DNA of 43,405 bases from a virus: IMG/VR virus record IMGVR_UViG_3300045809_000028; one strand, written 5' to 3'. The notes beneath the pieces are model-generated. The model was not told the origin of the DNA. It saw only the letters and a list, made by a program, of their open reading frames with translations, and made no database searches. Of this stretch, positions 240 to 43,405 are shown in pieces; positions within the stretch are counted from its first letter, which is position 1, and each line of letters opens with the position of its first letter. Made by a program: the position numbers and the translations under genes.

Positions 240-1418
240 TTAGAAACTAGCGAAATTTGCTAGCTTATCCGCTGTAGCAATTTTTTGTTTTTGACTAACA
301 TGCGTGTAGATATTATTGGTGATTTCGATAGAAGCATGCCCAAGGATTTCTTGAGCTTCTTTCATATCTATGCCAGCTTGGTACAACATAGAAGCATGCG
401 TATGTCTCCAACCGTGTGTTCCAATGTTAGGAAGACCAACTGCTTCTGAGAGCCTTTTAGAGCGCATATACAATGATTGGCGTGTGGCATGTTCGCCTTC
501 AAAGCTAGCGAAGACAATGTTCTTATTTATAATATTCGATTGGAAAAAGAATTCTTTCTGATGCAATCGCCATTTTTTTAATATTTGACATGTTTTATTA
601 TCTAAACGAATTGTGCGATAGGAGCTTTTCGTCTTTGGTGGACCAATTTCAAAGCCATCTTTTGTTCGGGTGACAGTCTTGGAAATGCTAAGTGTTTGTT
701 GGTTGAAATCTATATCTGTTTCCCAATCAAGTGCAAGAGCTTCGCCACCACGAATTCCTGTGAATGCTAGCACTCTATACATAACTAAATCCCATTCAGC
801 AAAATACTTGTACAAAGGATTATTATTTTTTACTTCTGCAACTTTATTATTCAAGTGAGTAAAAACTTTTTCAACTTCATCCATCGTATAAAATTTGATT
901 TTCTTTACTTCTGGATCATCAGTTATTTCTTTTGGGCGAGTGACACGGATAAAAGGATTTTTTTCAATTATTTCTAGTGTTACTCCTAGTTCCATAATTT
1001 TCACAAGATATTGAACAATTACCTTGTATTGTTTCAGCTTTTTCGATAATGAATTTACTAAATCTTGTGCAACGATTGGTGATATTTGAGATACTCTCAT
1101 ACGTCCGATTACAGGAAGTACATGGTTTTTTATATTCATTTCTGTAACTAAACTAGTAGCTTCTCTAACGGTTGATTTGTACGATTCAAACCAAAGTTCA
1201 TATAAATTTTGAAATGTTTCATTTGATTTTTTCTGTAATCCTTTTTTATCAAATTCTACTTTTAATCTTGAAAGTTCTAACTGAGCTGCTTTTTTTGTTT
1301 TAAAATTACTACGGGTAGTTTTGATGGGTTTTCCTGTTGCTGGATTTGTCCCTAGATATGCTTGGAATTTCCAGCGTTTTGATCCATCTTTTTTAGTATA
1401 TTGTTTAAATGTAGCCAT
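240..1418 (-). CDS. int: Tyrosine (lambda-type) site-specific integrase
   Basis: 392 aa. Catalytic signature: FTGIRGGEALAL (Arg), HGWRHTHAS (H-x-x-R-H), LGHASIEITNNIYTH (His, Tyr). AGGAGG lies 7 nt upstream of the ATG. Terminal position next to the att-like repeats. Confidence 0.95.
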   Translation of the reverse strand: MATFKQYTKKDGSKRWKFQAYLGTNPATGKPIKTTRSNFKTKKAAQLELSRLKVEFDKKGLQKKSNETFQNLYELWFESYKSTVREATSLVTEMNIKNHVLPVIGRMRVSQISPIVAQDLVNSLSKKLKQYKVIVQYLVKIMELGVTLEIIEKNPFIRVTRPKEITDDPEVKKIKFYTMDEVEKVFTHLNNKVAEVKNNNPLYKYFAEWDLVMYRVLAFTGIRGGEALALDWETDIDFNQQTLSISKTVTRTKDGFEIGPPKTKSSYRTIRLDNKTCQILKKWRLHQKEFFFQSNIINKNIVFASFEGEHATRQSLYMRSKRLSEAVGLPNIGTHGWRHTHASMLYQAGIDMKEAQEILGHASIEITNNIYTHVSQKQKIATADKLANFASF

Positions 1419-1587: not shown

Positions 1588-2575
1588 AATTTCTATTAAT
1601 TTCTATAATTGTTCTAGTTCTATTTTCTGATGCTTCTAAACCGAAATCAGGATTATTTTTAATAGTATTTAAAATCATTTCTTTCAAACCTAGTCTATCT
1701 ATAAGGATAACCTTACTTTTTATAGCTAAATCTCTAGCACTAGGAGTGAAATAATTTGTTGTTATTACAATCGCTTCATCAAGATTGTAGTATACTTTTC
1801 CTGCAATAATCTCTTGTACAGCTTTATTTCCTACTGGATTAGAATATCTTTTAGCTTGAATTGCATAAGTCATATTATTTTTTTTGGATTTTAAATCAAC
1901 ACCTTGATCTCCAGTAGATACAGTTACTATAGTTTTTTCAAAACCATTATTTTCGAAAATTTCCACTAAATAATTTTCGAATTCAAAACCATCCATAGAA
2001 TCAATCTTCTTCATCTCTTGTTTTAAAATTATTTTGTTACTTCTATTAATCTGTTTTTCATAAATAGAATTCAATGACTTATTATCAGATATAATTGCTT
2101 CTGATTTTTCGATTTCTTGTTTTAGAAGTGCCAACTGCTTAATGAGATCTTGATGTTCTTGATGCTTTTCATTATAATTTTCTAGTTTCAATGATAAATT
2201 GTTAGTTTCATTATTCTTTGAATCAAGTTCTTTCTCAATATTTTTTATTGAGTCTACTATTTTCTTATACGCATCTTTTTGAGTCTGAATTGAATATTCT
2301 AAAGACTCTAACTGTGTATGTAGGTCTTTGTTTTTTAATTCTAAATCTTCATTTTTATCAAATAATTCATTATAACGTGTAATCTCTTCATTTAACTCAT
2401 CAGTAGTTAAATTAGAAAAACCTCTAAAATAATAGTGAATAATTATTGTTGCAAATAAATTACATAAAATAAAGAGTGCACCAATTAATAAATCTGTACT
2501 AACTAAAGTTATAAGCAAGATGGTATTGAAAATATACAAAAACACAAAAGAAAATTTTACTATTATATTATTCAT
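1586..2575 (-). CDS. Membrane-anchored coiled-coil protein with a C-terminal Mrr_cat-like (PD-(D/E)xK) restriction-endonuclease domain; candidate defence/exclusion moron
   Basis: 329 aa. Two N-terminal hydrophobic helices (FVFLYIFNTILLITLVS..LIGALFILCNLFATIIIHYYF). A heptad-rich segment of about 130 aa follows. The C-terminus reads FEFENYLVEIFENNGF..TGDQGVDL..YAIQAKRY..VITTNYFTPSA..LIDRLGL, as in Mrr N-terminal catalytic domains. Visibly more AT-rich than neighbouring genes. Confidence 0.7.
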   Translation of the reverse strand: MNNIIVKFSFVFLYIFNTILLITLVSTDLLIGALFILCNLFATIIIHYYFRGFSNLTTDELNEEITRYNELFDKNEDLELKNKDLHTQLESLEYSIQTQKDAYKKIVDSIKNIEKELDSKNNETNNLSLKLENYNEKHQEHQDLIKQLALLKQEIEKSEAIISDNKSLNSIYEKQINRSNKIILKQEMKKIDSMDGFEFENYLVEIFENNGFEKTIVTVSTGDQGVDLKSKKNNMTYAIQAKRYSNPVGNKAVQEIIAGKVYYNLDEAIVITTNYFTPSARDLAIKSKVILIDRLGLKEMILNTIKNNPDFGLEASENRTRTIIEINRN

Positions 2576-2664
2576 TTGTTCAACTCATTTCTGATATAAT
2601 GTGTATGTGCATACTCAGTAATGAGGAACCCTAGTTGTAGCTTGAACTGCAGCTGGGGTATTTT

Positions 2665-3132
2665 TTATTTAAACCAATCAAATATTTCAATTGTTCCATT
2701 TAATCTAAAACAGATAGTATAATGACTATATTTTATTTTTCCATCACTTTTATTGGCATATACTGAAACGGCGCGTTTCAAAGTTGATAGAGGGATATCT
2801 AAAAAATCAGCACATTCTTGATAGGTTACAAGTTGCTGATGATAACAATCAACGATATCTTGTAGGGTTACCAATAAAGTAGCACCCAGATTTCGAGCCT
2901 TGTTCTCTTGTTTCTTTTCTTCAAGGGTTTCCTGTCTTGAAATATCTCCTGTACCAGTAAGATAATGTGATATTTCTTCTGCTACAGTATTATTTAAAGT
3001 AGTGCTATCTTGCTCGGGATGTAAATAAATAGTTTCATTATTAATCCATCCTTTTTGCTTATTGGGCATTAAGGGGTCAAAAACATATTTCAAATCTGAA
3101 TACTCTGCCATGAGTTTTTCGTGCAACTGCAT
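2665..3132 (-). CDS. ImmA/IrrE-like (COG2856) protein with a degenerate metal motif; putative anti-repressor protease partner of the XRE repressor
   Basis: Sits immediately downstream of the XRE repressor in the same operon. Size and the IYLHPEQ..VAEEISHYLTG segment resemble the ImmA HExxH region, but the first His is Glu. ATG at 3132 follows AGGTGA; the ORF could extend to a TTG at 3177. Confidence 0.5.
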   Translation of the reverse strand: MQLHEKLMAEYSDLKYVFDPLMPNKQKGWINNETIYLHPEQDSTTLNNTVAEEISHYLTGTGDISRQETLEEKKQENKARNLGATLLVTLQDIVDCYHQQLVTYQECADFLDIPLSTLKRAVSVYANKSDGKIKYSHYTICFRLNGTIEIFDWFK

Positions 3133-3980: not shown

Positions 3981-4274
3981 ATGAAATTACAAGTTGATGC
4001 AATTGATATTCTTCCTAAGCTGAGAGACGAATTTGAAAAGCTAGCTCGTGAAATCGTTGAGAGTCTTTTCAATAATTTAATGGCTAATTACATGAAACAA
4101 AAAGAATTGCCTAGATACATGAATAAAAAGCAAGCTTGTCAGTATATGAATACGTCTTTTCCTACTTTGAAAAATAAGTATATAGCTAATGGTTTACGTG
4201 TAATCACTATCGATGACGAGGAAAAGATTGATCAAAAAGACGCAGATGCATTCATGGAAAAACATAAATCATAA
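3981..4274 (+). CDS. Excisionase-family-like HTH protein (putative Xis or early regulator)
   Basis: 97 aa. The C-terminal half, MNKKQACQYMNTSFPTLKNKYIANGLRV, resembles excisionase/MerR-type winged HTH. Called partly by position in the early operon. Confidence 0.4.
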   Translation: MKLQVDAIDILPKLRDEFEKLAREIVESLFNNLMANYMKQKELPRYMNKKQACQYMNTSFPTLKNKYIANGLRVITIDDEEKIDQKDADAFMEKHKS

Positions 4275-4288
4275 AACGTGTGGGGCGT
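4271..4288 (+). repeat. 18-mer ATAAAACGTGTGGGGCGT (contains the 13-mer, copy 2); exact inverted copy at 43111-43128
   Basis: Exact match read in sequence. Intergenic, directly after the stop codon of the Xis-like gene. Confidence 0.7.
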
Positions 4289-4309
4289 AAAAAGATAGAG
4301 GTGGAAAAG

Positions 4310-4489
4310 TTGAAAAAGCATTTTAATCTGTGGGTCGTGTTGTCGTTGCCAATTTTGGTTTTGATTACAAATCAAATACATGTTGCTTTCTCATTGGCTT
4401 TACTTGGCGGTGCTTACGTTGGGCTAGGTATCAGTTACGATCAAATTTCTTTTCAGTACGACGAAAAAAAATATTTAAATAAACGCTAG
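4310..4489 (+). CDS. Small membrane protein (hypothetical)
   Basis: TTG start 5 nt after GAGGTGG. One long hydrophobic stretch, WVVLSLPILVLITNQIHVAFSLALLGGAYVGLGI. The ORF track extends to a GTG at 4280 that has no RBS. Confidence 0.45.
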   Translation: MKKHFNLWVVLSLPILVLITNQIHVAFSLALLGGAYVGLGISYDQISFQYDEKKYLNKR

Positions 4490-4543
4490 GGTTAAACCTC
4501 CAAGGGAAACGAGTACGGCGTTTATTGAATAGAAGGAGAAAAA

Positions 4544-4777
4544 ATGAATATAAGACGAAAGAAAAAAATGAAATCTATCGCAGAAAAAATTGCTGAATTA
4601 AGCGAAGAGCTTGAGATGCTGCAAGACGAAGAACAAGAGTATATGGACAATATGCCAGAGAATTTGCAAGGGTCCGAGCGATATGAAGTAGCTGACCAAG
4701 CTATTGATACTATGGAAGTTGCCATCGATAGATTGAACGACGTTTGCACCGAATTGGAAGAAATCTACGAAAATTGA
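4544..4777 (+). CDS. Hypothetical early protein (acidic, helical)
   Basis: 77 aa, GAAGGAG RBS, in the co-oriented early operon. Confidence 0.6.
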   Translation: MNIRRKKKMKSIAEKIAELSEELEMLQDEEQEYMDNMPENLQGSERYEVADQAIDTMEVAIDRLNDVCTELEEIYEN

Positions 4778-4794
4778 AAGGAGGTGAGTAGATA

Positions 4795-5070
4795 ATGCCA
4801 GAATACAAAGACGAAAAGGGTTATACCATCGATGAACAAGGTAACAAATCTGCCCAGATGACATTGACACCAACTATTTACGTTGGAGATGTAACTTTTG
4901 ATAATGGTGAAAAAGCACAGATTTTAACCACTTGGGGACAGTCACCAATAGTTAGATTTGATGATGGTTCAGAGGTGATTTGGAATTGGAAAGAAATTAT
5001 TAATGAAGCGGTAAAAATTAAGGATGCAAGAAAAAAGCCTACCTCGGCGGCAACCGAGATAAGCAAATAA
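4795..5070 (+). CDS. Hypothetical early protein
   Basis: 91 aa, AAGGAGGTGAG RBS upstream. Confidence 0.6.
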   Translation: MPEYKDEKGYTIDEQGNKSAQMTLTPTIYVGDVTFDNGEKAQILTTWGQSPIVRFDDGSEVIWNWKEIINEAVKIKDARKKPTSAATEISK

Positions 5071-5075
5071 AAAAT

Positions 5076-5318
5076 ATGAACATATCTAAGGAGAGTTTAT
5101 CACAAATGAATAAAATAGACCATTTAATAAATGTATTGGTTTTGGAATGCAAGAAACAAAATATTCCAGTATTAGTTTCAGTTTCTATTGATGATGAAAT
5201 AACCGTACAAGGTTTTGGTTCCCACTCAAGTATGACTGAATCAGTCAACGCAATTCAAAAAGCAGTAGTCGATGAATTCGAGAAAGGAGATAACGAAGAT
5301 GCCGATGAAGATCAATAG
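5076..5318 (+). CDS. Hypothetical early protein
   Basis: 80 aa in operon context. The start is uncertain; an internal ATG at codon 11 follows AAGGAG. Confidence 0.5.
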   Translation: MNISKESLSQMNKIDHLINVLVLECKKQNIPVLVSVSIDDEITVQGFGSHSSMTESVNAIQKAVVDEFEKGDNEDADEDQ

Positions 5319-6618
5319 TTTAGAAGTCGAGAACATTAAACGTGTCAAAGCAGTAGTCATTCAGCCTACAGAGAACGGCTTAACTATTCTAGGTGGGAAT
5401 AATAACCAAGGGAAGACTAGTGTATTAGATGCAATTGCTTGGGGGCTAGGTGGAAATAAATACAAACCTTCCAATCCTCAACGTGAAGGTTCTGTCACAC
5501 CACCTAATCTAAAAATTACCATGAATAACGGTCTGATTGTTGAACGTAAAGGCAAGAATTCAGATTTGAAGGTCATTGACCCTCAAGGTAACAAAGGCGG
5601 TCAACAGCTTCTAAATAGCTTTGTAGAAGAGCTAGCCATTGACCTACCAAAGTTTATGGAATCTTCTTCTAAAGACAAAGCGAATATTTTACTACAGATC
5701 ATCGGTATTGGTGATCTGTTGGAAAAATTGGAAATGGAAGAGAAATCCATCTACAACGAACGTTATCAAGTCGGACGGATTGCCGATCAAAAGAAAAAGT
5801 TTGCTGAGGAACAACCGCACTATGCTGATGCGCCTAAGGAATTAATTTCTACTATGGATTTAATTCAACAGCAACAACAAATTCTAGCTATCAATGGTGA
5901 AAATCAACGGAAACGTGAAAATGTTCAACGTCTACAAAATAAGTTTGATTATGAGGCACAACAAATTGAGCAACTACGCCAACAGTTAGCCAAAATGGAA
6001 GAAACGCATCAATTGACTGCCAATGATTTAGCGATTGCTCAAACGTCTGCAAAAGATTTACAAGATCAATCAACAGCAGAATTGGAACAGAGTCTTCAAA
6101 ACGTGGAACAAATCAATGTGAAGGTTCGTGCGAATTTTGATAAGGAAAAAGCGGAGTTGGACGCAGAAGAATACGCAAAACAATACCGAGCATTAGATGA
6201 AGGAATTAAAGCAGTTCGAGAAGAGCGCATGAAGCTATTGAACAACGCTCAGTTGCCTTTACCTGGACTATCTGTGTTAGAGGGAGAATTAATCTACAAC
6301 GGCCAACAGTGGGACAACATGAGCGGTTCTGATCAGCTAAAAGTATCTACTGCCATTGTTCGTAAGTTGAAACCAGAATGCGGTTTTGTCTTGCTGGATA
6401 AATTGGAACAAATGGATATGATTACGCTGAACGAATTTAGTCAGTGGTTACAGCAAGAAGGACTGCAAGCAATTGCAACACGTGTTTCAACGGGCGATGA
6501 ATGTAGCATTATTATTGAAGATGGCTATGTAACTGAAAATAAATTACTTGAGGGCGGAACACCACCTCAACAAGCAACATCTAATACAACACCAACGTGG
6601 ACGAAAGGAGCATTTTAA
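5299..6618 (+). CDS. SMC/RecF/RecN-like AAA ATPase (phage recombination/replication)
   Basis: N-terminus INSLEVENIKRVKAVVI..LTILGGNNNQGKTSVLDAIAWGLGG (Walker A of the SMC_N/AAA_23 type). Long Q/E-rich coiled coil in the middle. C-terminal FVLLDKLEQMD (Walker B-like). ATG at 5299 follows AAAGGAG. Confidence 0.75.
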   Translation: MPMKINSLEVENIKRVKAVVIQPTENGLTILGGNNNQGKTSVLDAIAWGLGGNKYKPSNPQREGSVTPPNLKITMNNGLIVERKGKNSDLKVIDPQGNKGGQQLLNSFVEELAIDLPKFMESSSKDKANILLQIIGIGDLLEKLEMEEKSIYNERYQVGRIADQKKKFAEEQPHYADAPKELISTMDLIQQQQQILAINGENQRKRENVQRLQNKFDYEAQQIEQLRQQLAKMEETHQLTANDLAIAQTSAKDLQDQSTAELEQSLQNVEQINVKVRANFDKEKAELDAEEYAKQYRALDEGIKAVREERMKLLNNAQLPLPGLSVLEGELIYNGQQWDNMSGSDQLKVSTAIVRKLKPECGFVLLDKLEQMDMITLNEFSQWLQQEGLQAIATRVSTGDECSIIIEDGYVTENKLLEGGTPPQQATSNTTPTWTKGAF

Positions 6619-11614: not shown

Positions 11615-13849
11615 TTGGAAAACAAATTAAATTTACTTGAGCTGTTGGAATTTGTAGATCCAGCATATCTTTCTTATCAGGAATGGACCAACGTAGGAAT
11701 GGCATTGAAACATGAAGGCTATACGGCATTAGATTGGGACCAATGGAGCCAACGAGATTCTTCACGTTACCATTCAGGTGAATGTTTCAAAAAGTGGGAT
11801 ACGTTTAAAGGTAATGGCCAGCCAGTAACAGGGGCAACCATCACGCAATTGGCCAAAGAGAATGGTTGGATGTCCCCGTTTAAAAGTGATGATATTGGTC
11901 ATGAGTTAGATTGGAACGATACGCTTCAACGTGATGATTTAGTTATCATTGACCGCAACTGGATTGAAGGAAAAGAAATTCATGAGCCAACAAAATGGGA
12001 GCCATCGCGTCAAATTATCCAGTACTTAGAAGCGTTATTCGAGCCATCAGAGACAGTCGCCTATAATATGGCAGCTTGGCAAGACGAAGATGGCAAGTGG
12101 AAGCCTTCGAATAAAGGTGCGTATGATCGGACTGCTGGTCAGCTGATTGAAGCCCTTACTCATTGTGGAGATGACATTGGTTCCGTTTTGGGTGACTACA
12201 ATCCAGAAGCAGGTGCATGGATTCGTTTCAATCCATTAGATGGGAAAGGTGTTAAAAACGACAATGTGACAGAATTCCGCTATGCGCTAGTCGAATCTGA
12301 CAACATGAGTCTTGAAAAACAAAATGCTATCATGCGTGAGTTAGAACTACCAATCGCAGCAATGATTTACAGTGGCAAAAAATCTATTCATGCCATTGTG
12401 CGAGTGGATGCAGATAATTATCCGGAATATCGGAAGCGGGTGGATTATCTTTATGATGTTTGTAAGAAAAATGGTCTGACAAATGATAACCAAAACAGGA
12501 ACCCGTCACGATTAAGCCGTATGCCTGGTGTTGTTCGTGGCGAGAACAAGCAATTTATTATTGATACCAATATTGGGAAATCAACATGGGACGAATGGAA
12601 AGAATGGATTGAAAGTGTCAATGATGATTTGCCTGACCCTGAAAGTTTAGAAGATTTATTTGCCAAGCCAATCGAGCTAGCACCCGAATTAATTAAGGGA
12701 ATGTTACGACAAGGTCATAAGATGTTAATCGCTGGACCATCAAAAGCTGGTAAATCATTTTCATTAATCCAGTTGGCCATAGCTATCGCAGAAGGTCGTC
12801 AATGGTTTGGTTTTGATTGTGAAAAAGGGAAAGTATTGTACGTCAATCTAGAATTAGACGAACGTTCCGCAAAAGTCCGTTTTGTAGATATTTATGAACG
12901 ATTGGGTCAAGGGCATGCAAATGTTTCCAATATTGATATTTGGAATCTACGTGGTAAGACTAGCCCAATGGATAAGCTAGCGCCTAAATTAATCAGACGT
13001 GCACAGAAGTCCAATTATATGGCGGTCATCATTGATCCGATTTACAAAGTACTTACTGGAGACGAGAATAGTGCTCATGAAATGGCCAAGTTTACCAATC
13101 AGTTTGACAAAATAGCCACTGAATTAAATTGTGCGGTTATCTACTGTCACCATCATTCAAAGGGGTCGCAAGGCGGGAAAAACTCCATTGACCGTTCAAG
13201 TGGTTCTGGCGTATTCGCAAGAGATCCTGACGCAATATTAGATTTAATCGAGTTACCAGTTACAGAAGATAGGTATATGGTATTGGAAAATGAAGCAATT
13301 TGTAAGACGTATAACGATGCCATCAAGAAATACAATCCTAGTTATTCAGATATTGGATTAGATGACCAATTCAGTCCAAAACAAATGGGCTACCATTTAA
13401 TGTGTGCGATTAAGTCACAGCCAATTTTGCAACAGATAGAAGAAAATAAACAACAAGCAATTCGTGCAGCTAGACAAGCGACTGCATGGCGTATTGATGG
13501 AACGTTGCGAGAATTCCCCAAATTCGACCCCATAAATGCCTGGTTCAGATATCCGATTCATGTACTGGATGATTCGCTCAAAGATATTTCTCTAGAAGAT
13601 GATTCTCCACAAGGTAAGTGGCAGAAAGGTGTAAAAAAAGCTAATCAATCCCGAAGCGAAAAATCGAACCAAGAATTAGATACGGCTTTTAGTGCATTGT
13701 CCATGGACGGTGGACCAGTGGAGGTAAGTCAAATCGCTGAATATCTAGATATAGATAAACGTTCTGTTTATCCGAAAGTAAAAAAACACAAAAAATTCAC
13801 AGTGGATGGTGGATATGTTCAAAGAACAGAATCAACTCAAGAGTTGTAG
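11615..13849 (+). CDS. Bifunctional primase / replicative helicase (PriCT-2-like N-terminus, primase-polymerase-like core, AAA_25/RepA-like ATPase)
   Basis: 744 aa, TTG start. N-terminus YQEWTNVGMALKHEGY..WDQWS, then YSGKKSIHAIVRV, then Walker A LIAGPSKAGKSF and Walker B AVIIDPIYK. Confidence 0.8.
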   Translation: MENKLNLLELLEFVDPAYLSYQEWTNVGMALKHEGYTALDWDQWSQRDSSRYHSGECFKKWDTFKGNGQPVTGATITQLAKENGWMSPFKSDDIGHELDWNDTLQRDDLVIIDRNWIEGKEIHEPTKWEPSRQIIQYLEALFEPSETVAYNMAAWQDEDGKWKPSNKGAYDRTAGQLIEALTHCGDDIGSVLGDYNPEAGAWIRFNPLDGKGVKNDNVTEFRYALVESDNMSLEKQNAIMRELELPIAAMIYSGKKSIHAIVRVDADNYPEYRKRVDYLYDVCKKNGLTNDNQNRNPSRLSRMPGVVRGENKQFIIDTNIGKSTWDEWKEWIESVNDDLPDPESLEDLFAKPIELAPELIKGMLRQGHKMLIAGPSKAGKSFSLIQLAIAIAEGRQWFGFDCEKGKVLYVNLELDERSAKVRFVDIYERLGQGHANVSNIDIWNLRGKTSPMDKLAPKLIRRAQKSNYMAVIIDPIYKVLTGDENSAHEMAKFTNQFDKIATELNCAVIYCHHHSKGSQGGKNSIDRSSGSGVFARDPDAILDLIELPVTEDRYMVLENEAICKTYNDAIKKYNPSYSDIGLDDQFSPKQMGYHLMCAIKSQPILQQIEENKQQAIRAARQATAWRIDGTLREFPKFDPINAWFRYPIHVLDDSLKDISLEDDSPQGKWQKGVKKANQSRSEKSNQELDTAFSALSMDGGPVEVSQIAEYLDIDKRSVYPKVKKHKKFTVDGGYVQRTESTQEL

Positions 13850-32290: not shown

Positions 32291-34180
32291 GTGGTGATGA
32301 AATCAATTGGTCCTCAATGGAACAGACAAAACTTGGATAACATTAACGAAAATTTCAATACTTTGAATCAAAATGTAACAAGTGTTCCAGGTTTGATTGC
32401 AGATACAAAAGATTTAAAAGAACAAGCTATCGAAACTACAGATAAAGTCATAGCATTAGAAAATAGATTTAGGTTTTATGTTGATATTAATTTAAATGAC
32501 TGTGTTGTTGCAGGTTTATATTATATTGGGAGTGGGAATAATCAGAATATGCCTCCAGGAAAAGCTAGCGGTATGCTTAAAGTGACAAGTAGTCGTACAA
32601 ATCAAATTGTACATCAAGAATATACAAGCGCAAGCATAGCGGAGCAAACATTTGTACGTAGATTAAGAGATAATAATTGGTCAGAATGGATTGAAACAAC
32701 TGTCACTAAGAAACAGATTGATGATTTAGAGAAGTTGATAAATGATGCCGAATCAATTTTATCCGACAGCGTACTGATAAATCCTACATTAACGGATAGC
32801 ACTAATGGTTGGACTAGAAATGCTGGAAACCCAATTGTAGTGGTAGAACAAGGTGTGCCAACTTTAATAGCTCAAGGTGATGGAAGTCATCAATTATCTC
32901 AAATGGTAAACTGGAAAAAAGATCATGTTTATTATATGCAAGTTGAAGTTTATGTAACTGATTATGTTACTGGAAGAATGGGATTACAAGCAAATGGACG
33001 CTTTGTTGGTGGAAATGTTATTAATTTAGGTGTAACTCGAGACACGGAAGGTTGGGAATCACTATATACTAATTTTGTTGTGACGGAAGATTATACGTTA
33101 GGTGTCTATTATGGATCTATCAGTTCAGCTAATTTAAATGGCAAAGCTAAAAATGCTTATATCGTTGATTTAACCGAAATGTATGGTGCTGGAAATGAAC
33201 CATCAGCAGTAGATTTTTATAACTTAAAGTTGCCTATGGAAAATGATGGTATTAGTATGAACACTGCAGATGTGTTTAAGGTTTTAGATCATAAAATTGA
33301 TAATATAGCTACAAAATCAAATATTACTGCAACAGATGCACAAGCCGAACAAGTGTTTTTTGCAGAAATGAATAGAAAATGCCAATTGTGGAAAATGAAC
33401 GATACAGTATTTAAAAATGCCAGCGGTCTATCTTCAAGTGGTCAAGTATCTAGTGCAAGAGATATGTTACGCTTGACGTTACAAGCGGCGGGTTCTGAAC
33501 GTATGCTAAAAGTATGGGGAGCTAAATCCTATGATGTTAATATCAGGGGCGGAAATCCTAGGACTGTTAATATTGTGGCCACTGTAACCAACCCAACACT
33601 AGAAGTAGCATATTTATTGCTGGGAGGAAAATCAGGCACATTAGGTTCAACCGTCAATAATGCGAGTGTATTGACTCAAGTAAAAGATGGTACTTACACG
33701 TTTGCATCGGTAGTCATGACTTCAAGTACCACGACATCACGTTATGAGGACACGAAAAAATTGATTGATGTGATTACTAAAAAATTAGTAAATCCTAATT
33801 ATGTTCCAACAGAGACATTTACCGCTGTTTCGGCATGTGGCATTTTAATCCCTAATAATCCGTTAAATTTGACTAATTTGGAGGTGTTGCCGACATATGG
33901 CTATTATGGTTTTAATGAGAGTGCATCGTTACAGCAAGCATCTTTAACTAAAATGATGACAGCCTTAATTACGTTAGAAAATGTATCAAATTGGTATGAG
34001 ACGTTTACAATTAAGTCATCCGATTTAGTTGGAGGCAGTGGACCAACGATGTACGATGGTGACCAGCTTAGCTTTATGGATGCATTATACTTGATGATGT
34101 TACCATCGAGTAATATCACTGCAAAAGCTATGGGACGTGTAATTGGTCACAAAATTATACAAGCAAGAGGATATATTTAA
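32291..34180 (+). CDS. Tail fibre-like protein: N-terminal knob-like region, CBM-like beta domain, C-terminal circularly permuted S11 (PBP5/DacA-type) D-Ala-D-Ala peptidase domain
   Basis: 629 aa. KSG (aa 447-449, nt 33629-33637) precedes ASLTKMMTA (SxxK, nt 33941-33952) and LPSSN (SxN, nt 34106-34114). Knob-like GLYYIG..NMPPG..GMLKV..VHQEY..RRLRDNNWSEW. Confidence 0.75.
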   Translation: MVMKSIGPQWNRQNLDNINENFNTLNQNVTSVPGLIADTKDLKEQAIETTDKVIALENRFRFYVDINLNDCVVAGLYYIGSGNNQNMPPGKASGMLKVTSSRTNQIVHQEYTSASIAEQTFVRRLRDNNWSEWIETTVTKKQIDDLEKLINDAESILSDSVLINPTLTDSTNGWTRNAGNPIVVVEQGVPTLIAQGDGSHQLSQMVNWKKDHVYYMQVEVYVTDYVTGRMGLQANGRFVGGNVINLGVTRDTEGWESLYTNFVVTEDYTLGVYYGSISSANLNGKAKNAYIVDLTEMYGAGNEPSAVDFYNLKLPMENDGISMNTADVFKVLDHKIDNIATKSNITATDAQAEQVFFAEMNRKCQLWKMNDTVFKNASGLSSSGQVSSARDMLRLTLQAAGSERMLKVWGAKSYDVNIRGGNPRTVNIVATVTNPTLEVAYLLLGGKSGTLGSTVNNASVLTQVKDGTYTFASVVMTSSTTTSRYEDTKKLIDVITKKLVNPNYVPTETFTAVSACGILIPNNPLNLTNLEVLPTYGYYGFNESASLQQASLTKMMTALITLENVSNWYETFTIKSSDLVGGSGPTMYDGDQLSFMDALYLMMLPSSNITAKAMGRVIGHKIIQARGYI

Positions 34181-37212: not shown

Positions 37213-38514
37213 ATGGTAAAAGCTACACATTCGGGCGCTATCGACGCACAATGGGGAAATTATCAATATCTGACTGATATCGCAAACGTTGCAATAAAGA
37301 AGTTTCCTGGTATGCGTATCACTTCGGGACAACGTAACGGCGACCCTTATCATCACGGACAAAGACAGGCGATTGATATTGCTTATCCAGCGAGCGATAA
37401 TGGCAATGCCAAATATTTCGAGGTAGCAAACTGGATTTTCGAAAACTACCCTGACCAAATCGCATATGTAATCACACAAGGAATGGTTCGTGATAGGGAC
37501 GGTTACAGTGGCACTGGTAAATCGGGTAAGTGGGTACGTTGGCCAGATGGAGACCATTACGACCATTTGCATTTAAGCGGATTGTTAGGACCAAATGACA
37601 TCAAAAAGGGAGGAATAACTGTGAGTTTACCTAAACCAGTCATTTTAGATATTAGCGAATGGCAAGTGCCTAGCAAAATAGACTATGATAAAATTGCAAA
37701 AGATATTGTAGGTGTAATCATTCGAGTGCAATATGGTTCGAATTATGTTGATAAACATTACAAAACACATATCAATGAGTTTAAAAAGCGTGGGATTCCA
37801 ATCGCTGTTTATGCGTGGGTTCGTGGTACCAGTTATAGTGATATGGAGACGGAAGCCACCGATTTTTATAATCGTGCAAAAGAATTCGCCCCCGCTTTTT
37901 GGTGGTTGGATGTGGAAGAGTGGTCAATGACAGATATGCGAGGTGGATGTGAACGCTATCGCGCAAAACTAAAGACACTAGGCGTTAAAAAAGTAGGTGC
38001 GTATATTGCTAATCATATGTATCACGGATTAAACCTTGATACCGCCAAATTCGATGGCATTTGGATACCGACATACGGCTCAAACAACGGTCAGTATAAC
38101 GGTAGCAATCCAACTGCAACGTTTGCATACGATATCCATCAATACACATCAAATGGCGAATTGTCAGGTTATGATGGACCGCTTGACTTAAACAGACTTG
38201 CAAATGTTGGTAAGGGGCTGGAATATTATTTTGGTAGCAAGACCGCAACCAAACCAGAAAGCGGAACAACTGTGTCACCAAAAGTCGAACAAGGGGGAAT
38301 CAACGTGAAAACTATTACTACAACCACTGATAAAGTCAAATTACGTAGTGCTGCCAAAGTCGCAAACAATGTAATCGCTGAATTGCCGAAAGGCTCACAG
38401 GTCAAAATTAATGATATTGTCATTGCTGATGGCATTATTTGGGGCGTTCAGCCACGCACTAATAATCAGAAGGGATATATTGATTTAGGAAAACCGTTTG
38501 GATGGATTAAGTAG
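37213..38514 (+). CDS. Endolysin: LAS/M15-type zinc peptidase + GH25 muramidase + SH3b cell-wall binding domain
   Basis: ITSGQRNGDPYHHGQRQAIDI and DHYDHLHLS (H-x-D ... H-x-H). ILDISEWQ .. WWLDVEEW .. IHQYTSNGELSGYDGPLDLN (GH25). C-terminal VKLRSAAKV..LPKGSQVKINDIV..GIIWGV (SH3b). Confidence 0.85.
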   Translation: MVKATHSGAIDAQWGNYQYLTDIANVAIKKFPGMRITSGQRNGDPYHHGQRQAIDIAYPASDNGNAKYFEVANWIFENYPDQIAYVITQGMVRDRDGYSGTGKSGKWVRWPDGDHYDHLHLSGLLGPNDIKKGGITVSLPKPVILDISEWQVPSKIDYDKIAKDIVGVIIRVQYGSNYVDKHYKTHINEFKKRGIPIAVYAWVRGTSYSDMETEATDFYNRAKEFAPAFWWLDVEEWSMTDMRGGCERYRAKLKTLGVKKVGAYIANHMYHGLNLDTAKFDGIWIPTYGSNNGQYNGSNPTATFAYDIHQYTSNGELSGYDGPLDLNRLANVGKGLEYYFGSKTATKPESGTTVSPKVEQGGINVKTITTTTDKVKLRSAAKVANNVIAELPKGSQVKINDIVIADGIIWGVQPRTNNQKGYIDLGKPFGWIK

Positions 38515-38585: not shown

Positions 38586-39629
38586 TTATAGTTTATCTTC
38601 ATTAGCTGAAAATTTAACAAAATTAGATCCTAATAGTCCACCTATTGAGGTAACTATTAAACCTAATAACATTGCTATGAACCCAAAAATGGAAGCTTTT
38701 GAAGCAGCATTACTGGCTTCTTCAGTTGTTTCTCTCGCCTCTTGAACAGCTTTATTTAATTCATCTTTAGCATCTTCAAGGGTACTTCTAGCAGCTTTAA
38801 TTTGATTTTGCGCTTCTTCACTCGCAGTTTTTAAACCATTAACTATATTTTTAGTCGCTTCTTCGGCTTCTTGTTGATTTAGTTCTGTATTAGAAGATAC
38901 TGCATTAGCTATGGCATCTTCATCGACACCATCTCCAATTTTATTCGCACGATTATCTAATTTGTTCAATAAGTCATCTATAATTTTATCTGAATTCTCT
39001 GGATTAGTAGCAATTTCTTTCCCAGCATCTGTAACTTCGTCTGTTACTTCAGTTAATTCGTTTTTCAAATAATCAGGTTGTAATTCTGGAACATCCGTAT
39101 CTTGTAAAACTTGCTCTACGTTATCCTGTAATTCTCTTGTATCAATGCTATCCATGTTCTCAGTTACTTTATCAAAAGTATTTGAAACTGTATCGGATAA
39201 TCCACTAGCAACTGTTTCAATGCCACTGCCTGTTGCTGAAGCGATGTTACCAAATAAAGAACCCACAGAAGATAAAATTCCTATTGAAGCATAAGATAAT
39301 ACTAAAATAAGTAAAATAGAGGTTGATGCCCATGTTAAAAATCCATGTACAAGACCAATTCTTCTAGAAGCAATTCCCGAAACAAAACCAGCACCTAAAA
39401 AAGATAAAATAAGTGATAGTATCGTCCATATGATGACACCTGTTCCAACACCATTTAAAGGTTGATCAGAAGTAGGCTGAACCATTCCAAAACCAATAGC
39501 TGAGCCAATCAATGACAAAGTTATTAATAACGAAAAGAATGTAACTATACCTGCAATGATAGAACCCCAAGATAAATTATAACCAGCTTCTTCTTGGGTT
39601 GTAAGATAATGCTTGAATCTTTTACTCAT
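38586..39629 (-). CDS. Polytopic membrane protein with a long acidic helical domain and a C-terminal TM anchor (lysogenic-conversion/exclusion candidate)
   Basis: 347 aa, GGAGGAA RBS. About four N-terminal TM helices, a ~170-aa D/E/T/N-rich helical region, and a terminal helix IFGFIAMLLGLIVTSIGGLLG. Confidence 0.7.
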   Translation of the reverse strand: MSKRFKHYLTTQEEAGYNLSWGSIIAGIVTFFSLLITLSLIGSAIGFGMVQPTSDQPLNGVGTGVIIWTILSLILSFLGAGFVSGIASRRIGLVHGFLTWASTSILLILVLSYASIGILSSVGSLFGNIASATGSGIETVASGLSDTVSNTFDKVTENMDSIDTRELQDNVEQVLQDTDVPELQPDYLKNELTEVTDEVTDAGKEIATNPENSDKIIDDLLNKLDNRANKIGDGVDEDAIANAVSSNTELNQQEAEEATKNIVNGLKTASEEAQNQIKAARSTLEDAKDELNKAVQEARETTEEASNAASKASIFGFIAMLLGLIVTSIGGLLGSNFVKFSANEDKL

Positions 39630-39953
39630 GAAAATTCCTCCTTAAAATTTTTATAAAAATAGTACCTATATTAACCATAACATTCCTAATTAATTCAAGC
39701 AAATAATAAACGAAACTGAAAATTGAAAGTGTTGTTGGTACTGGCTTTTCTTATTGAGTACTGGAATAAGATATTAAGTAAACTCAAAAAAATGTAAACA
39801 GGTCATTTATCTTATAAGTAAAAACTCCACGCTGATGATAAAGGCGTGGGTTACATAGTTATAAAAAATTCTATTAAATTGACTTACGTATTAGCTTACA
39901 TAATTAGCTAATATTAAAGCTTAAAATTTAGCTATAATATTAACTTAGTTCTT

Positions 39954-40026
39954 GTGTAACTGTAATTCTAGTGATATAGTTACACTGAAAGTGTTACCCC
40001 TTTAGCGTATTTTATACGCTAATTTT
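39954..40026 (+). promoter_or_regulatory. Structured leader upstream of the Panacea-domain gene: two perfect hairpins, the second followed by a U-run
   Basis: GTGTAACT (39954-39961) / AGTTACAC (39978-39985). TTAGCGTAT (40002-40010) / ATACGCTAA (40014-40022), then TTTT. Confidence 0.4.
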
Positions 40027-40071
40027 GTATATACTTTTTGAAAGAAGATTTGATAGAAGGAGGAGATTGTT

Positions 40072-40581
40072 TTGACTAATGAAAACAAAACATATGTCTT
40101 TGATGATGTAAGAGTTCTCGCTAAATTAGTTAGAAAAATATCTAGTAGAGAAATGACTCCGCTAAGACTTCAAAAAACTTTGTACTTTGTTTTTGCGTTT
40201 TATGGTGCTACATTAGGGAAATTAAGTCCTGAAAATCAGGAAGAAAATAAATTTGAAGGTAGTGCTAATTATCCAAAGTATTTATTTGAAGAGCAATTTG
40301 AAGCATGGCAATATGGTCCTGTTTTAAGAAGCATGTATACGATTAATAAACATCGTAAATATGAAATTTTAGAAGCAGAAGAATGGGAAATTAAAGACGA
40401 AAAAGATCAAGCTATTTATGATTTAATTGAACAAGTTGTGAAACAAACTGATGAAATGGGCGATTTTACTCTTGTAGAACGCACTCATGAAGACCAAGCA
40501 TGGAAAGATGCGTTCGAGAGTGAAAATAATTTAATGAGTAGAGATGCAATTGTTGAGGAATACAAGCTTGAACTCATTTAA
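40072..40581 (+). CDS. Panacea (DUF4065, SocA/GepA-like) domain protein; putative PanA-type antitoxin
   Basis: 169 aa, TTG start after GAAGGAGGAG. MTPLRLQKTLYFVFAFYGA ... FEAWQYGPVLRSMY matches the DUF4065 core (LKLQKLLYF..W..GPV). Confidence 0.7.
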   Translation: MTNENKTYVFDDVRVLAKLVRKISSREMTPLRLQKTLYFVFAFYGATLGKLSPENQEENKFEGSANYPKYLFEEQFEAWQYGPVLRSMYTINKHRKYEILEAEEWEIKDEKDQAIYDLIEQVVKQTDEMGDFTLVERTHEDQAWKDAFESENNLMSRDAIVEEYKLELI

Positions 40582-41215
40582 TTTTGATTTGTCAAAAAAA
40601 CGTGATTCAAAATCGAATGAAGAAAAAGTTCGCGACGCATTAATCCCAAAAAATCAATTAGACATTAAGTTGAAATTAAAAAATGGGGGGAAATATGTTT
40701 TATCTGCTCCTGATAGAGATAGACTTATTGAAATTCCTGAAACCTTTCTTACCTCAAAAAAACTACCTACTGTCAAATTTACAAACTTCATAAATCTAGA
40801 TAGTGTTCCAGAATCTACAAGAAGAACCCTAAAAACAATAATAGATGATATCACCTACATTTGTGAGAACAATGAGATGGTTGAATTCGCCAAAAATAAC
40901 ACGTCTCATTTAAGATCCGTGTTGAAATCTTACGGAATAGATGATGTCTTAAGTGAAGATAACGAAACAATATTTAAGGTTGATGGAATATCATATTACG
41001 AATCAGGAAAAAAAGAAAATCCTTTTCGTATCTATATGAAGATCGATGGATTAAATCAAAAACAAACTAAGTATAAATTGATTTTTTGTGACGTTTATCA
41101 TTTATGTATAGCTACTGGTTATAAAGGATTATCTTCTTTCCAAATGAGGGAACAAACTTATCTTAAATATTGTTATAGCTGTAAAAATCATCTTAAAGAA
41201 TTGATAGAAATATAA
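40568..41215 (+). CDS. Unknown 215-aa protein translationally coupled to the Panacea-domain gene; candidate toxin/effector
   Basis: The frame overlaps the upstream stop. TTG at 40568 lies 7 nt after GAGGAA (the ORF also opens at ATG 40544). No recognisable domain. The C-terminus FRIYMKIDG..KYKLIFCDVYH is faintly RelE/ParE-like. Confidence 0.6.
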   Translation: MNSFNFDLSKKRDSKSNEEKVRDALIPKNQLDIKLKLKNGGKYVLSAPDRDRLIEIPETFLTSKKLPTVKFTNFINLDSVPESTRRTLKTIIDDITYICENNEMVEFAKNNTSHLRSVLKSYGIDDVLSEDNETIFKVDGISYYESGKKENPFRIYMKIDGLNQKQTKYKLIFCDVYHLCIATGYKGLSSFQMREQTYLKYCYSCKNHLKELIEI

Positions 41216-41233
41216 CAAAGACCTTAGCTTTCG

Positions 41234-41512
41234 CTAGGGTCTTTGTTTGTTTTCGAATTTAAGTAGTCTATTATACAAATCTTCAATATCATCTACATGA
41301 TTGATCATATCCATAATATTTTCCATTTCTTCTTCAGTATCCCCTTTTGTAATTTGCTCGCTAAACTCTATAAGAGAATCATACGAATCAAATTCAACGT
41401 CTTCTGGAATTCCTAATTCATCTCGTAAATCATCTAATCTTTCTTGTAAATCATTAAATACAAGTGATGATAAGTATACCAGTTCGTCTCTTTTTATTTT
41501 CACAGTAATCAC
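41234..41512 (-). CDS. Small, strongly acidic protein (hypothetical)
   Basis: 92 aa, about one third Asp/Glu (EDVEFDSYDSLIEFSEQITKGDTEEEMENIMDMINHVDDIEDLY). Confidence 0.6.
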   Translation of the reverse strand: MITVKIKRDELVYLSSLVFNDLQERLDDLRDELGIPEDVEFDSYDSLIEFSEQITKGDTEEEMENIMDMINHVDDIEDLYNRLLKFENKQRP

Positions 41513-41607
41513 CTCGAAATTTATTTGTTAAATACACTATACCAACAAAAAAACTAAAAATCTCGAAAGGTGACAAAATGATACAAAGGTTTCCTTAGAG
41601 TCACATT

Positions 41608-41778
41608 TTATAAATTATTAATTTCTGCATCAATCAATCTCGCCATTTCAAACTCATAGGCGTCAATTAATTTATCTTTGTCGTGTATCAGCATAATCAA
41701 CATATACTCTTTAGTGTTGACAAACACTGCGCTATTTTTGATGTAGGCAATTCCTATTGAGTTTTTAAAATAATACAT
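41608..41778 (-). CDS. 56-aa hypothetical protein (below the ORF-track cutoff): MYYFKNSIGIAYIKNSAVFVNTKEYMLIMLIHDKDKLIDAYEFEMARLIDAEINNL
   Basis: Translated by hand. AAGGAGG lies 9 nt upstream of the ATG. Co-oriented with 41234-41512. Confidence 0.5.
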   Translation of the reverse strand: MYYFKNSIGIAYIKNSAVFVNTKEYMLIMLIHDKDKLIDAYEFEMARLIDAEINNL

Positions 41779-41781
41779 AAA

Positions 41782-41809
41782 AGCGTACCTCCTTAATAGG
41801 AAGTACGCT
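41782..41809 (-). promoter_or_regulatory. Hairpin that sequesters the Shine-Dalgarno of the 56-aa ORF
   Basis: AGCGTAC / GTACGCT plus TCCT / AGGA (11 of 12 bp paired, 4-nt loop). The SD AAGGAGG (41788-41794) lies inside the 3' arm. Confidence 0.5.
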
Positions 41810-41900
41810 GAAAAATGAAATAACCAAAATCTAAAAGTAGAGATAGCCCAATCTCTGCCTGATTAAGGTATTTAGAATTTTAAAAATAGTAAGTTTTTTA

Positions 41901-42278
41901 TTATTTATATCTGTTTCTATATTTTTTTGTAAATAATTTGGTTATAAAGTACGAAACAATAAAGCTGATAATAAGAATAACAAATGCTATAGCAAAAGAT
42001 AAAACAGTATTATCTAAAATATCTTTGAAGACTGGCAATGTAATAAAGAGATAAAATCCTCCAATAGATAAAATTATTCCTAATAAGTAAAAACTTAACG
42101 TTTCTGCAAAAGTTTTTGATGATTCATACTTTGTATCGACAGACGCAAAATCCCCTTGCTGAAAAGGAATAGGGGAACCCGTCTGTGATGGATCAGATTT
42201 AGTATTCATGGTATTAAAAGAGTTTTTTGATATAGTTTGATTAGAGTCTTGTCTATATTGTTTTTCTCTATTATTCAT
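41901..42278 (-). CDS. Membrane protein (two TM helices) with a polar N-terminal region
   Basis: 125 aa. ATG is 6 nt after GAGGTG. Helices LSFYLLGIILSIGGFYLFITL and VLSFAIAFVILIISFIVSYFI. Confidence 0.65.
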   Translation of the reverse strand: MNNREKQYRQDSNQTISKNSFNTMNTKSDPSQTGSPIPFQQGDFASVDTKYESSKTFAETLSFYLLGIILSIGGFYLFITLPVFKDILDNTVLSFAIAFVILIISFIVSYFITKLFTKKYRNRYK

Positions 42279-42331
42279 AAGTAACACCTCACTTTTTAAA
42301 TTATTGTATCACAGAATAAAAAAACTATACA

Positions 42332-42853
42332 TTAATAGAACATTGTAACATATTGATATCGTGTTCCACTTTTGCCAGCTGAACCAACTAAGTCAGCATG
42401 AATATAAACGTTTACTGATTGAACATTTTTAGCGTTTGGTGAGACTGTAAAGCTATGGGTGCCTGATTTAAGAATTTTATGCTCTTTTGGTATCGTAGGA
42501 TATACAACTTTGCTACCATCCCTTTTATCTAAAAAAAGAGATGAAAAATAAGGCGTTCCATTCGAAGTATTTGTATACTTAACTTCTACTTTATTTACAG
42601 TGACAGGCCCTTGTCCTGTAGCTCTTGAAAAATGAGTTATCACCATAAGATCAACGTTTCCTGTTCCAGCTTTAAACATATATTGATTATATATCTTCCC
42701 ATTGATCATTTTAGAAGTGACATTTTTTCCGCTAGTAATAACATTATTAGTACCTGGTTGCAAAGAAGTTCCAGCTTCTGCTTTTATTGGGTTAATAAAA
42801 CCAATAAAAATAATCCCTAAAATTGACAATAAAATAATAAATGATTTCTTCAT
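42332..42853 (-). CDS. Secreted beta-rich protein of unknown function (signal peptide)
   Basis: 173 aa, AAGGAG RBS. N-terminus MKKSFIILLSILGIIFIGFINPIKAEA, then a T/S/N/V-rich sequence with alternating polarity. Confidence 0.7.
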   Translation of the reverse strand: MKKSFIILLSILGIIFIGFINPIKAEAGTSLQPGTNNVITSGKNVTSKMINGKIYNQYMFKAGTGNVDLMVITHFSRATGQGPVTVNKVEVKYTNTSNGTPYFSSLFLDKRDGSKVVYPTIPKEHKILKSGTHSFTVSPNAKNVQSVNVYIHADLVGSAGKSGTRYQYVTMFY

Positions 42854-43182: not shown

Positions 43183-43278
43183 TTAATTCTATTTAATTTA
43201 GTTGAACGACTTAAGCTTTTTTTCTATAAAAAAGCTGATATATTAACATTATGAAATGGAATATTATAGTAAAAAAAC

Positions 43279-43405
43279 AATGAAACGTTTAGACACTACT
43301 AAAATGCAAGAACTTGCAAATCGTGCGCTGAAAGATTGCGACACAATGGAAGAAGTCGTTGCTTTAGTTGAAGAATACGTTGCTGAATAAGGCTTTTTAA
43401 GCTTT
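43279..43405 (+). repeat. 127-nt exact direct terminal repeat, copy 2 (contains the duplicate of the 36-codon ORF at 43280-43390)
   Basis: Identical to 1-127. Confidence 0.95.

Follow-up and report, generated by a model that had tools for sequence, protein, structure and literature searches.

What does a small, phage-borne Panacea-domain gene control when the protein encoded directly downstream of it resembles nothing in the domain databases? The question is raised by a two-gene cassette at 40072-41215 (plus strand) of virus record IMGVR_UViG_3300045809_000028, a stretch of 43,405 nucleotides (nt) that is referred to here, at its full length, as the window and that supplies the numbering for all cassette positions. 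The first gene, panA, encodes a stand-alone Panacea (DUF4065/SocA-like) antitoxin; the second, gene B, encodes a soluble protein of 215 amino acids (aa) that, judged from profile matches, is a new and divergent member of T16, a family of computationally predicted toxins paired with Panacea antitoxins (PanTs). The two genes probably form a PanAT-type (type II) toxin-antitoxin (TA) module with an enzymatic, soluble toxin, carried as an accessory cassette of a temperate phage; its toxicity and its role in defense are what we infer from the features described below.

The gene pair and its family

panA (40072-40581, plus strand) starts with a TTG codon, 8 nt downstream of a Shine-Dalgarno sequence (AGGAGG, 40058-40063), and encodes a 169-aa protein with an isoelectric point (pI) of 4.7, whose sequence includes LRLQKTLYFVFAFYGA and FEAWQYGPVLRSMY. 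The first-pass annotation of the locus recognized a DUF4065/Panacea core in this product, and a Pfam search confirms it: PanA matches SocA_Panacea (PF13274) with 36 bits (E 1.5e-8), above the gathering score of 25.7, and precomputed PF13274 matches are also found on the upstream gene in related loci. The match to phrog_1281 (E 1e-27) covers residues 17-165, so PanA is a stand-alone Panacea protein that lacks an extra N-terminal domain. PanA further has a partial match to the NCBIfam model SocA_antitoxin (NF047745; 52.7 bits, E 4e-14), for which the equivalog cutoff is 190 bits; PanA is therefore related to SocA, not equivalent to it.

That relationship bears on one alternative, a mechanism like that of the type VI system SocAB of Caulobacter, in which PanA would deliver its partner to ClpXP and toxicity would be set by proteolysis of the toxin, not by binding alone. 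Panacea is the SocA domain, and the SocAB antitoxin, like PanA, belongs to PF13274. The PanA score, however, falls far under the equivalog cutoff, the partner is unrelated to SocB, with no detectable similarity to it or to anything else in Pfam and NCBIfam, and the behavior of the PanAT pairs tested to date is that of type II complexes (Kurata et al., 2022; PMC8832971), all of which makes a SocAB-like mechanism very unlikely here.

Gene B (40568-41215, plus strand) begins within panA. Its frame contains a first ATG at 40544, which would give a 38-nt overlap and a 223-aa product, and an in-frame TTG at 40568, which gives a 14-nt overlap and a 215-aa product; the panA stop codon lies at 40579-40581. 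Inside the end of panA, GAGGAA (40555-40560) is followed after a 7-nt spacer by this TTG (40568-40570), and together they form a translational-coupling signal (40555-40570). Homologs of gene B begin at the TTG position (M-x-S-F-N-F-D), so the 215-aa form with the 14-nt overlap is the likely product. Both open reading frames (ORFs) stand in the ORF list as first described, and the translational coupling proposed from the 14-38 nt overlap and the position of GAGGAA 7 nt before the TTG is borne out by the sequence, with the homolog starts supporting the TTG.

The gene B product has a pI of 8.8 and was first described as having no transmembrane (TM) segment and no assignable motif, a description that still applies: its maximum 19-aa hydropathy is 0.98, and searches of Pfam, PADLOC, PHROGs, NCBIfam and PDB sequences, with the single protein and with family profiles, gave no significant match. 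The same charge pattern is seen among relatives, with acidic PanA proteins (pI 4.2-4.9 in 13 loci) and basic partners (family median pI 8.8).

The family itself can be placed. A profile built from 33 members and searched against all ORFs of the collected loci matches Orf25 of Lactococcus bIL312 (59 bits, E 1.5e-17), gp25 of Brochothrix phage BL3 (78 bits), and proteins of Streptococcus Javan satellites (51-64 bits); one member, P0034, also matches phrog_28810, the PHROG built on Orf25 (E 2.9e-12). The bIL312 proteins NP_076824.1 and NP_076825.1 are entered as a predicted PanA/PanT pair of cluster pT17/T16 in Dataset S1 of Kurata et al. (2022; PMC8832971). The family of gene B is therefore already on record, and the earlier description of its product as a new, undescribed toxin does not hold. 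T16 comprises 12 pairs with no assigned domain, that of bIL312 and eleven others from Alkalibacterium, Vagococcus, Carnobacterium, Halolactibacillus, Salinicoccus, Staphylococcus simiae, Streptococcus equi, three lactobacilli, and Mannheimia (PMC8832971); the T16 accessions searched for were not found in the text or supplements of the NetFlax paper of 2023 (PMC10440598). Cluster T1 of Kurata et al., in which a pair from Enterococcus plantarum is listed, was weighed as an alternative assignment and set aside, as it spans many phyla and no link to it was found.

The window pair is built like Orf24/Orf25 of bIL312: a stand-alone Panacea gene comes first, its partner of ~190-240 aa overlaps it, and the pair is borne by a phage or satellite. 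The two partners are homologous, with the motifs FTN, K, R, and D-x-[YHL]-H-L in common, but their identity is ~17-24%, and the window protein belongs to an Enterococcus-centered sub-branch that is absent from the 2022 table.

Conserved pairing, co-divergence and mobility

A gene for PanA lies directly upstream of the gene B relative, on the same strand and overlapping or at most 2 nt apart, in all of the 23 loci recovered, and this synteny persists to ~20% identity. Because the arrangement is found in 23 of 23 loci, the pairing is not due to chance, and the question posed at first pass, whether homologs of the second gene always sit next to a Panacea gene, is answered in the affirmative for this set. 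The two proteins also diverge together: over 78 locus pairs, the normalized bit scores of PanA and partner are correlated with r = 0.96. The predicted pairs of Kurata et al. (2022) were two-gene loci whose genes lay no more than 100 nt apart, present in at least two species and outside a longer operon; the window genes overlap by 14 nt, and the pair occurs in several genera with unrelated flanks. With the PF13274 match, the coupling and this synteny, the locus stands as the real PanA-coupled toxin candidate that had been proposed, although "undescribed" overstated its novelty, since T16 is listed.

The pair is conserved in Enterococcus species, Jeotgalibaca, Brochothrix phage BL3, Lactococcus bIL312, and Streptococcus satellites, and its surroundings vary. 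It follows the endolysin gene in unrelated prophages (the Enterococcus gallinarum type and BL3), and it stands at the end of satellites or elements resembling phage-inducible chromosomal islands (the Streptococcus Javan satellites, bIL312, and a Jeotgalibaca island with PrimPol/D5 genes). Elsewhere it lies beside ordinary chromosomal genes, and once it adjoins an Abi_2 gene. Two observations on individual genomes may be added. Jeotgalibaca sp. MA1X17-3 (CP090983.1, ~1.651-1.676 Mb; loci L008 and L009) carries two diverged PanA/T16 pairs ~14 kb apart in different mobile elements, one with a prohead protease remnant and the other with PrimPol/D5 primase-helicase genes. In BL3, the gene directly downstream of the PanA/T16 pair, gp26 (4193-5320 of locus L015), encodes a 375-aa Fic/DOC protein with a C-terminal winged helix, so that two toxin-type genes are stacked between endolysin and integrase.

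Relatives of gene B are rarely recovered. An exhaustive HMMER scan of 1.84 billion cluster representatives returned only 21, to which word-indexed searches contributed a few further sequences, from Jeotgalibaca and species of Enterococcus. Neither the cassette nor the partner gave any match when GenBank phages were searched at the DNA level and by tblastn; in phages the family is detectable only through the PanA protein and the family profile. A family-pattern scan of 185,579 species-representative genomes likewise gave no relative, an absence that fits a strain-variable mobile gene.

PanA relatives are also found in other company. Lactobacillus phage phiAT3 (ORF19, 1965-2465 of locus L018) and the lytic Herelleviridae phage Lb338-1 (gp50, 1986-2468 of locus L019) encode proteins 30-35% identical to the window PanA, with no partner downstream; an integrase or transposase gene follows instead. 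In a lytic phage such an orphan antitoxin could serve as a counter-defense against PanAT systems of the host. In Streptococcus satellite Javan218 (2477-3013 of locus L021), a PanA relative is coupled to a different partner, a 178-aa protein of phrog_24206 with no Pfam match. Judged from these sequences, Javan218 represents partner swapping within the same PanA clade, as described for the Panacea domain. A paratox gene lies further downstream of the Javan218 locus.

Fold and possible activity of the partner

Across 36 aligned sequences, reaching down to ~17-20% identity, S63, F71-T72-N73, Y122, K137, R154, and D175-x-[YHL]-H178-L179 of the partner are invariant or nearly so. In the window, all on the plus strand, F71-T72-N73 is encoded at 40778-40786 (within KFTN, 40775-40786), K137 at 40976-40978, R154 at 41027-41029, and FCDVYHL, which includes D175, H178, and L179, at 41084-41104. 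Four cysteines (C107, C182, C188, and C213) that are invariant in close Enterococcus relatives, together with weak zf-FLZ matches, brought up a zinc finger, which was rejected when the cysteines were found not to be conserved family-wide. Similarity to the Trm5 N-terminal domain or Trm5b (Pfam E 0.034; NCBIfam E 0.0056) appears in only one of 24 members and is treated as chance.

With an alignment of 33 sequences, AlphaFold2 models the partner at a mean pLDDT of 83 and a pTM of 0.79 (five models, 76.9-83.0); the alignment was required, as only five sequences gave a pLDDT of 35. In the model, a disordered N-terminus (residues 1-28) that carries a conserved F-x-F motif is followed by a helix and β-hairpin (30-56), helices (82-121), an antiparallel meander of four to five strands (135-175), and two C-terminal helices. 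In Foldseek, no chain of the PDB surpassed E 0.099 or a TM score of 0.24; the top entries (NTF2-like, STING, and BamC) have probabilities of at most 0.23 and TM scores of at most 0.24 and were ignored. Among predicted viral structures there is a single match, D7RWK8 (E 1.2e-7, TM score 0.61), which is taken to be BL3 gp25, and so a member of the family, because its length of 208 aa equals that of gp25 and the family profile matches gp25. As modeled, then, the fold appears to have no solved relative that Foldseek can detect.

The first-pass annotation saw a faint RelE/ParE pattern in the last ~50 aa of the protein, and parts of the model recall it. Residues ~100-180 are predicted to form a strand and helix followed by the antiparallel meander, K137, R154, and D175-x-Y-H178 lie on or just past successive strands, and D-x-Y-H loosely parallels the end of Proteus vulgaris HigB (...NYEDYH, sequence confirmed). 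RelE, HigB, and ParE toxins are, like the partner, small and basic with a C-terminal helix-then-meander arrangement, and a HigB2 structure (5jaa_D) is found at Foldseek rank 13. The partner might on these grounds be a ribosome-dependent mRNA endonuclease of the RelE/HigB type (BECR fold) that has diverged and bears an added N-terminal domain. It is, however, twice the size of these toxins, with ~35 residues beyond the motif, and no comparison made gives it significant support: the whole-chain match to 5jaa_D is not significant (E 0.63, probability 0.14, 67 columns, root-mean-square deviation 9.5), none of 24 members matches the Pfam families of RelE, ParE, HigB, YoeB, or Gp49 at E ≤ 1, P values of 0.23-0.56 resulted when hhalign compared the profile of the family with HigB, RelE, YoeB, E. 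coli HigB, ParE, YafQ, and MqsR, and a profile search of the PDB with the family is empty. HHpred output is given for only one T16 member, in Dataset S1 of Kurata et al., and names a "50S ribosomal subunit" at 51.5% (PMC8832971). The RelE/ParE pattern is thus not borne out, and a BECR-fold endonuclease is distinctly unlikely.

The probable type II module can be set out as a model, to which the toxicity of gene B, its direct neutralization, its enzymatic nature, its target, and a role in defense or addiction all belong. The pair would be an accessory ("moron") cassette of a siphovirus-like temperate phage with an Enterococcaceae host, located between its lysis genes and attachment site. Both genes would be read from a single transcript, with the 14-nt overlap coupling translation of gene B to that of panA. 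PanA, acidic and stand-alone, would bind its basic, soluble partner directly and hold it inactive; loss of PanA, or triggering by an infecting competitor phage, would free the partner and arrest growth of the lysogen. The partner would be an enzyme rather than a membrane peptide, because invariant polar residues (S63, T72, N73, Y122, K137, R154, D175, and H178) are placed on a compact α/β fold. Its most likely target class would be RNA or translation, through cleavage of RNA without a metal or some other action against translation, since most validated soluble PanTs act there. A role in phage competition (abortive infection) or in maintenance of the element is suggested because prophages and satellites carry the cassette in their accessory hot spots.

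Characterized PanAT systems supply the precedents. PanA proteins pull down their cognate toxins, and nine PanAT pairs have been validated, in which most toxins act on translation or the membrane (PMC8832971). Stand-alone Panacea neutralizes directly in two tested systems (PMC10440598). In PanT(D11):PanA of Bartonella choladocola and toxFtsL(D9):PanA of Gelidibacter mesophilus, PanA lacks an accessory neutralization domain, as it does in the window (PMC10440598), and by analogy direct neutralization by the globular Panacea domain would be expected. In the Bartonella pair, Panacea contacts the unstructured N-terminus of the toxin (PMC10440598); residues 1-28 of the window partner, with their F-x-F motif, are also predicted to be disordered. 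The two toxins differ from the window partner in having predicted membrane-localized TM regions, whereas the latter has none and looks like a soluble enzyme.

Several points weigh against this model. Of 25 predicted PanTs assayed in E. coli in the 2022 study, eight lacked toxicity and five were toxic but not rescued (PMC8832971), and ten further systems in the 2023 study were not toxic (PMC10440598), so at least a third of predicted PanTs proved non-toxic or were not rescued when tested. Every T16 row in Dataset S1 is marked "notest" (PMC8832971). The idea of an enzyme acting on RNA comes only from the kind of residues that are conserved, as no catalytic fold or motif was matched, and none of the defense models of PADLOC-DB 2.0 matches PanA, the partner, or the neighboring 92-aa gene product at E ≤ 1. 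In the usual picture of TA systems the antitoxin is the fast-evolving component; here the partner diverges about twice as fast as PanA, and it could instead be a sensing or specificity component.

From the same observations a different arrangement can be drawn, in which the two genes are functionally coupled but do not form a growth-arrest TA module, and the partner is, for example, a non-toxic effector or specificity factor, in counter-defense or regulation, that PanA modulates. The sizeable fraction of predicted PanT partners that are non-toxic when tested (PMC8832971; PMC10440598) and the faster evolution of the partner agree with it, as do the lone PanA relatives of phiAT3 and lytic Lb338-1, which imply that Panacea can serve phages without a T16 partner, and the authors of the NetFlax study propose that Panacea is a sensor (PMC10440598). 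The strict order of antitoxin then toxin, the overlap, the opposite charges and small sizes of the proteins, and their horizontal mobility through accessory hot spots of prophages and satellites are nevertheless the standard signature of TA and abortive-infection modules, and a non-toxic partner is unlikely.

The type II reading can also be carried further. The partner would then found a new enzymatic toxin fold, with an active site formed by K137, R154, D175, and H178 together with S63, T72, and N73, and would be a PanA-controlled abortive-infection weapon of prophages and satellites in Lactobacillales and Listeriaceae, with the fast-evolving partner or its F-x-F N-terminus sensing the trigger. 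This fuller version is possible but doubtful.

The phage setting and significance of the cassette

The window is a complete genome of a temperate siphovirus-like phage of ~43.3 kb. When it is compared with itself, bases 1-127 are identical to 43279-43405, and this exact end repeat marks the record as an assembly that is circular or overlaps at its termini. The repeat spans the 3' part of a 44-aa ORF at 43256-43390. An integrated copy of the phage is held by a 152-kb metagenomic contig (locus L026), in which phage and host match over ~105 nt at the end-repeat site (12736-12850) and then diverge; for this reason the sequence suggests that attP lies in the 44-aa ORF and that the phage brings its own copy of the gene end. 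A glycosyltransferase encoded in the flanking host DNA is at most 72% identical to Tetragenococcus and Enterococcus proteins, and the host is therefore a member of the Enterococcaceae without a close representative genome.

The ORF list and annotation place the integrase gene at 240-1418 (minus strand) and a GH25 endolysin gene at 37213-38514 (plus strand). The gene pair, which has a GC content of 30% against 35% for the phage window, runs rightward between the lysis genes and the attachment site. Its early description as an autonomous rightward unit in the att-proximal accessory region is upheld by a terminator at the gene B stop and by the integrated copy, in which host genes begin ~2 kb to the right of the pair. 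The intrinsic terminator that closes the cassette (41214-41247, plus strand), found by a hairpin scan directly at the gene B stop, has a 15-bp stem with 6 G-C pairs followed by a T-run; it is probably bidirectional because a convergent gene (41234-41512, minus strand) ends within it. Rfam also reports BSnc120 at 41197-41261, but its 30.7 bits stay below the gathering score of 114, and the match is most likely the terminator hairpin.

The leader region upstream of panA (39630-40071, plus strand) contains, in addition to the Shine-Dalgarno sequence, a perfect hairpin with a 9-bp stem and a T-run (TTTTG) at 40002-40022, ~50 nt upstream of the panA start. Loci of the E. gallinarum type (L001 and L007, ~5494-5514) have a hairpin with the same GCGTA/TACGC stem core at the equivalent place, downstream of a TTGACG-17-TATAGT promoter; it was not seen in more distant cassette loci. 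The hairpin may be an attenuator, a stabilizer, or an operator. Several related loci have a near-consensus promoter (TTGACA-17-TATAGT/TATAAT) upstream of panA; a promoter scan of the window found no site above its threshold adjoining panA, and the promoter of the leader is accordingly not pinned to a position.

Other genes of the window deserve brief mention. A leftward 347-aa gene (38586-39629, minus strand), probably another accessory gene, separates the endolysin gene from the cassette; its product carries hydrophobic segments at either terminus and a long acidic center resembling a coiled coil, and gives only weak ApoO/apolipoprotein-type Pfam matches. Four small leftward genes (41234-42853, minus strand) fill the space from the cassette to the attachment site and encode a very acidic protein of 92 aa, one of 56 aa, one of 128 aa with two C-terminal hydrophobic segments, and one of 173 aa whose N-terminus resembles a signal peptide; no significant family match was obtained for any of them in Pfam or PHROGs. 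In the tail module, a 627-629-aa protein (32291-34180, plus strand) encoded between the Sipho_tail and Prophage_tail/Tal proteins has, in the identical locus L026, a Pfam match to Peptidase_S11 (D-Ala-D-Ala carboxypeptidase) and weak matches of the β-lactamase class; a cell-wall-active domain of this kind is unusual for a tail-associated protein.

Panacea antitoxins pair with dozens of unrelated toxins, and for most of the predicted partners both fold and mechanism are still to be assigned. The window provides a clean and complete example of one such orphan cluster, T16, for which the start codon is now defined, the confident model has no relative in the PDB, polar residues conserved throughout the family can be listed, and there is evidence of movement of the module among enterococcal, streptococcal, lactococcal, and Brochothrix prophages and satellites. 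In clinically relevant Gram-positive bacteria, the TA and defense repertoire would gain a new effector fold if gene B is toxic; a non-toxic gene B would join the sizeable group of PanA partners that have no role in growth arrest and would bear on the sensor role proposed for Panacea.

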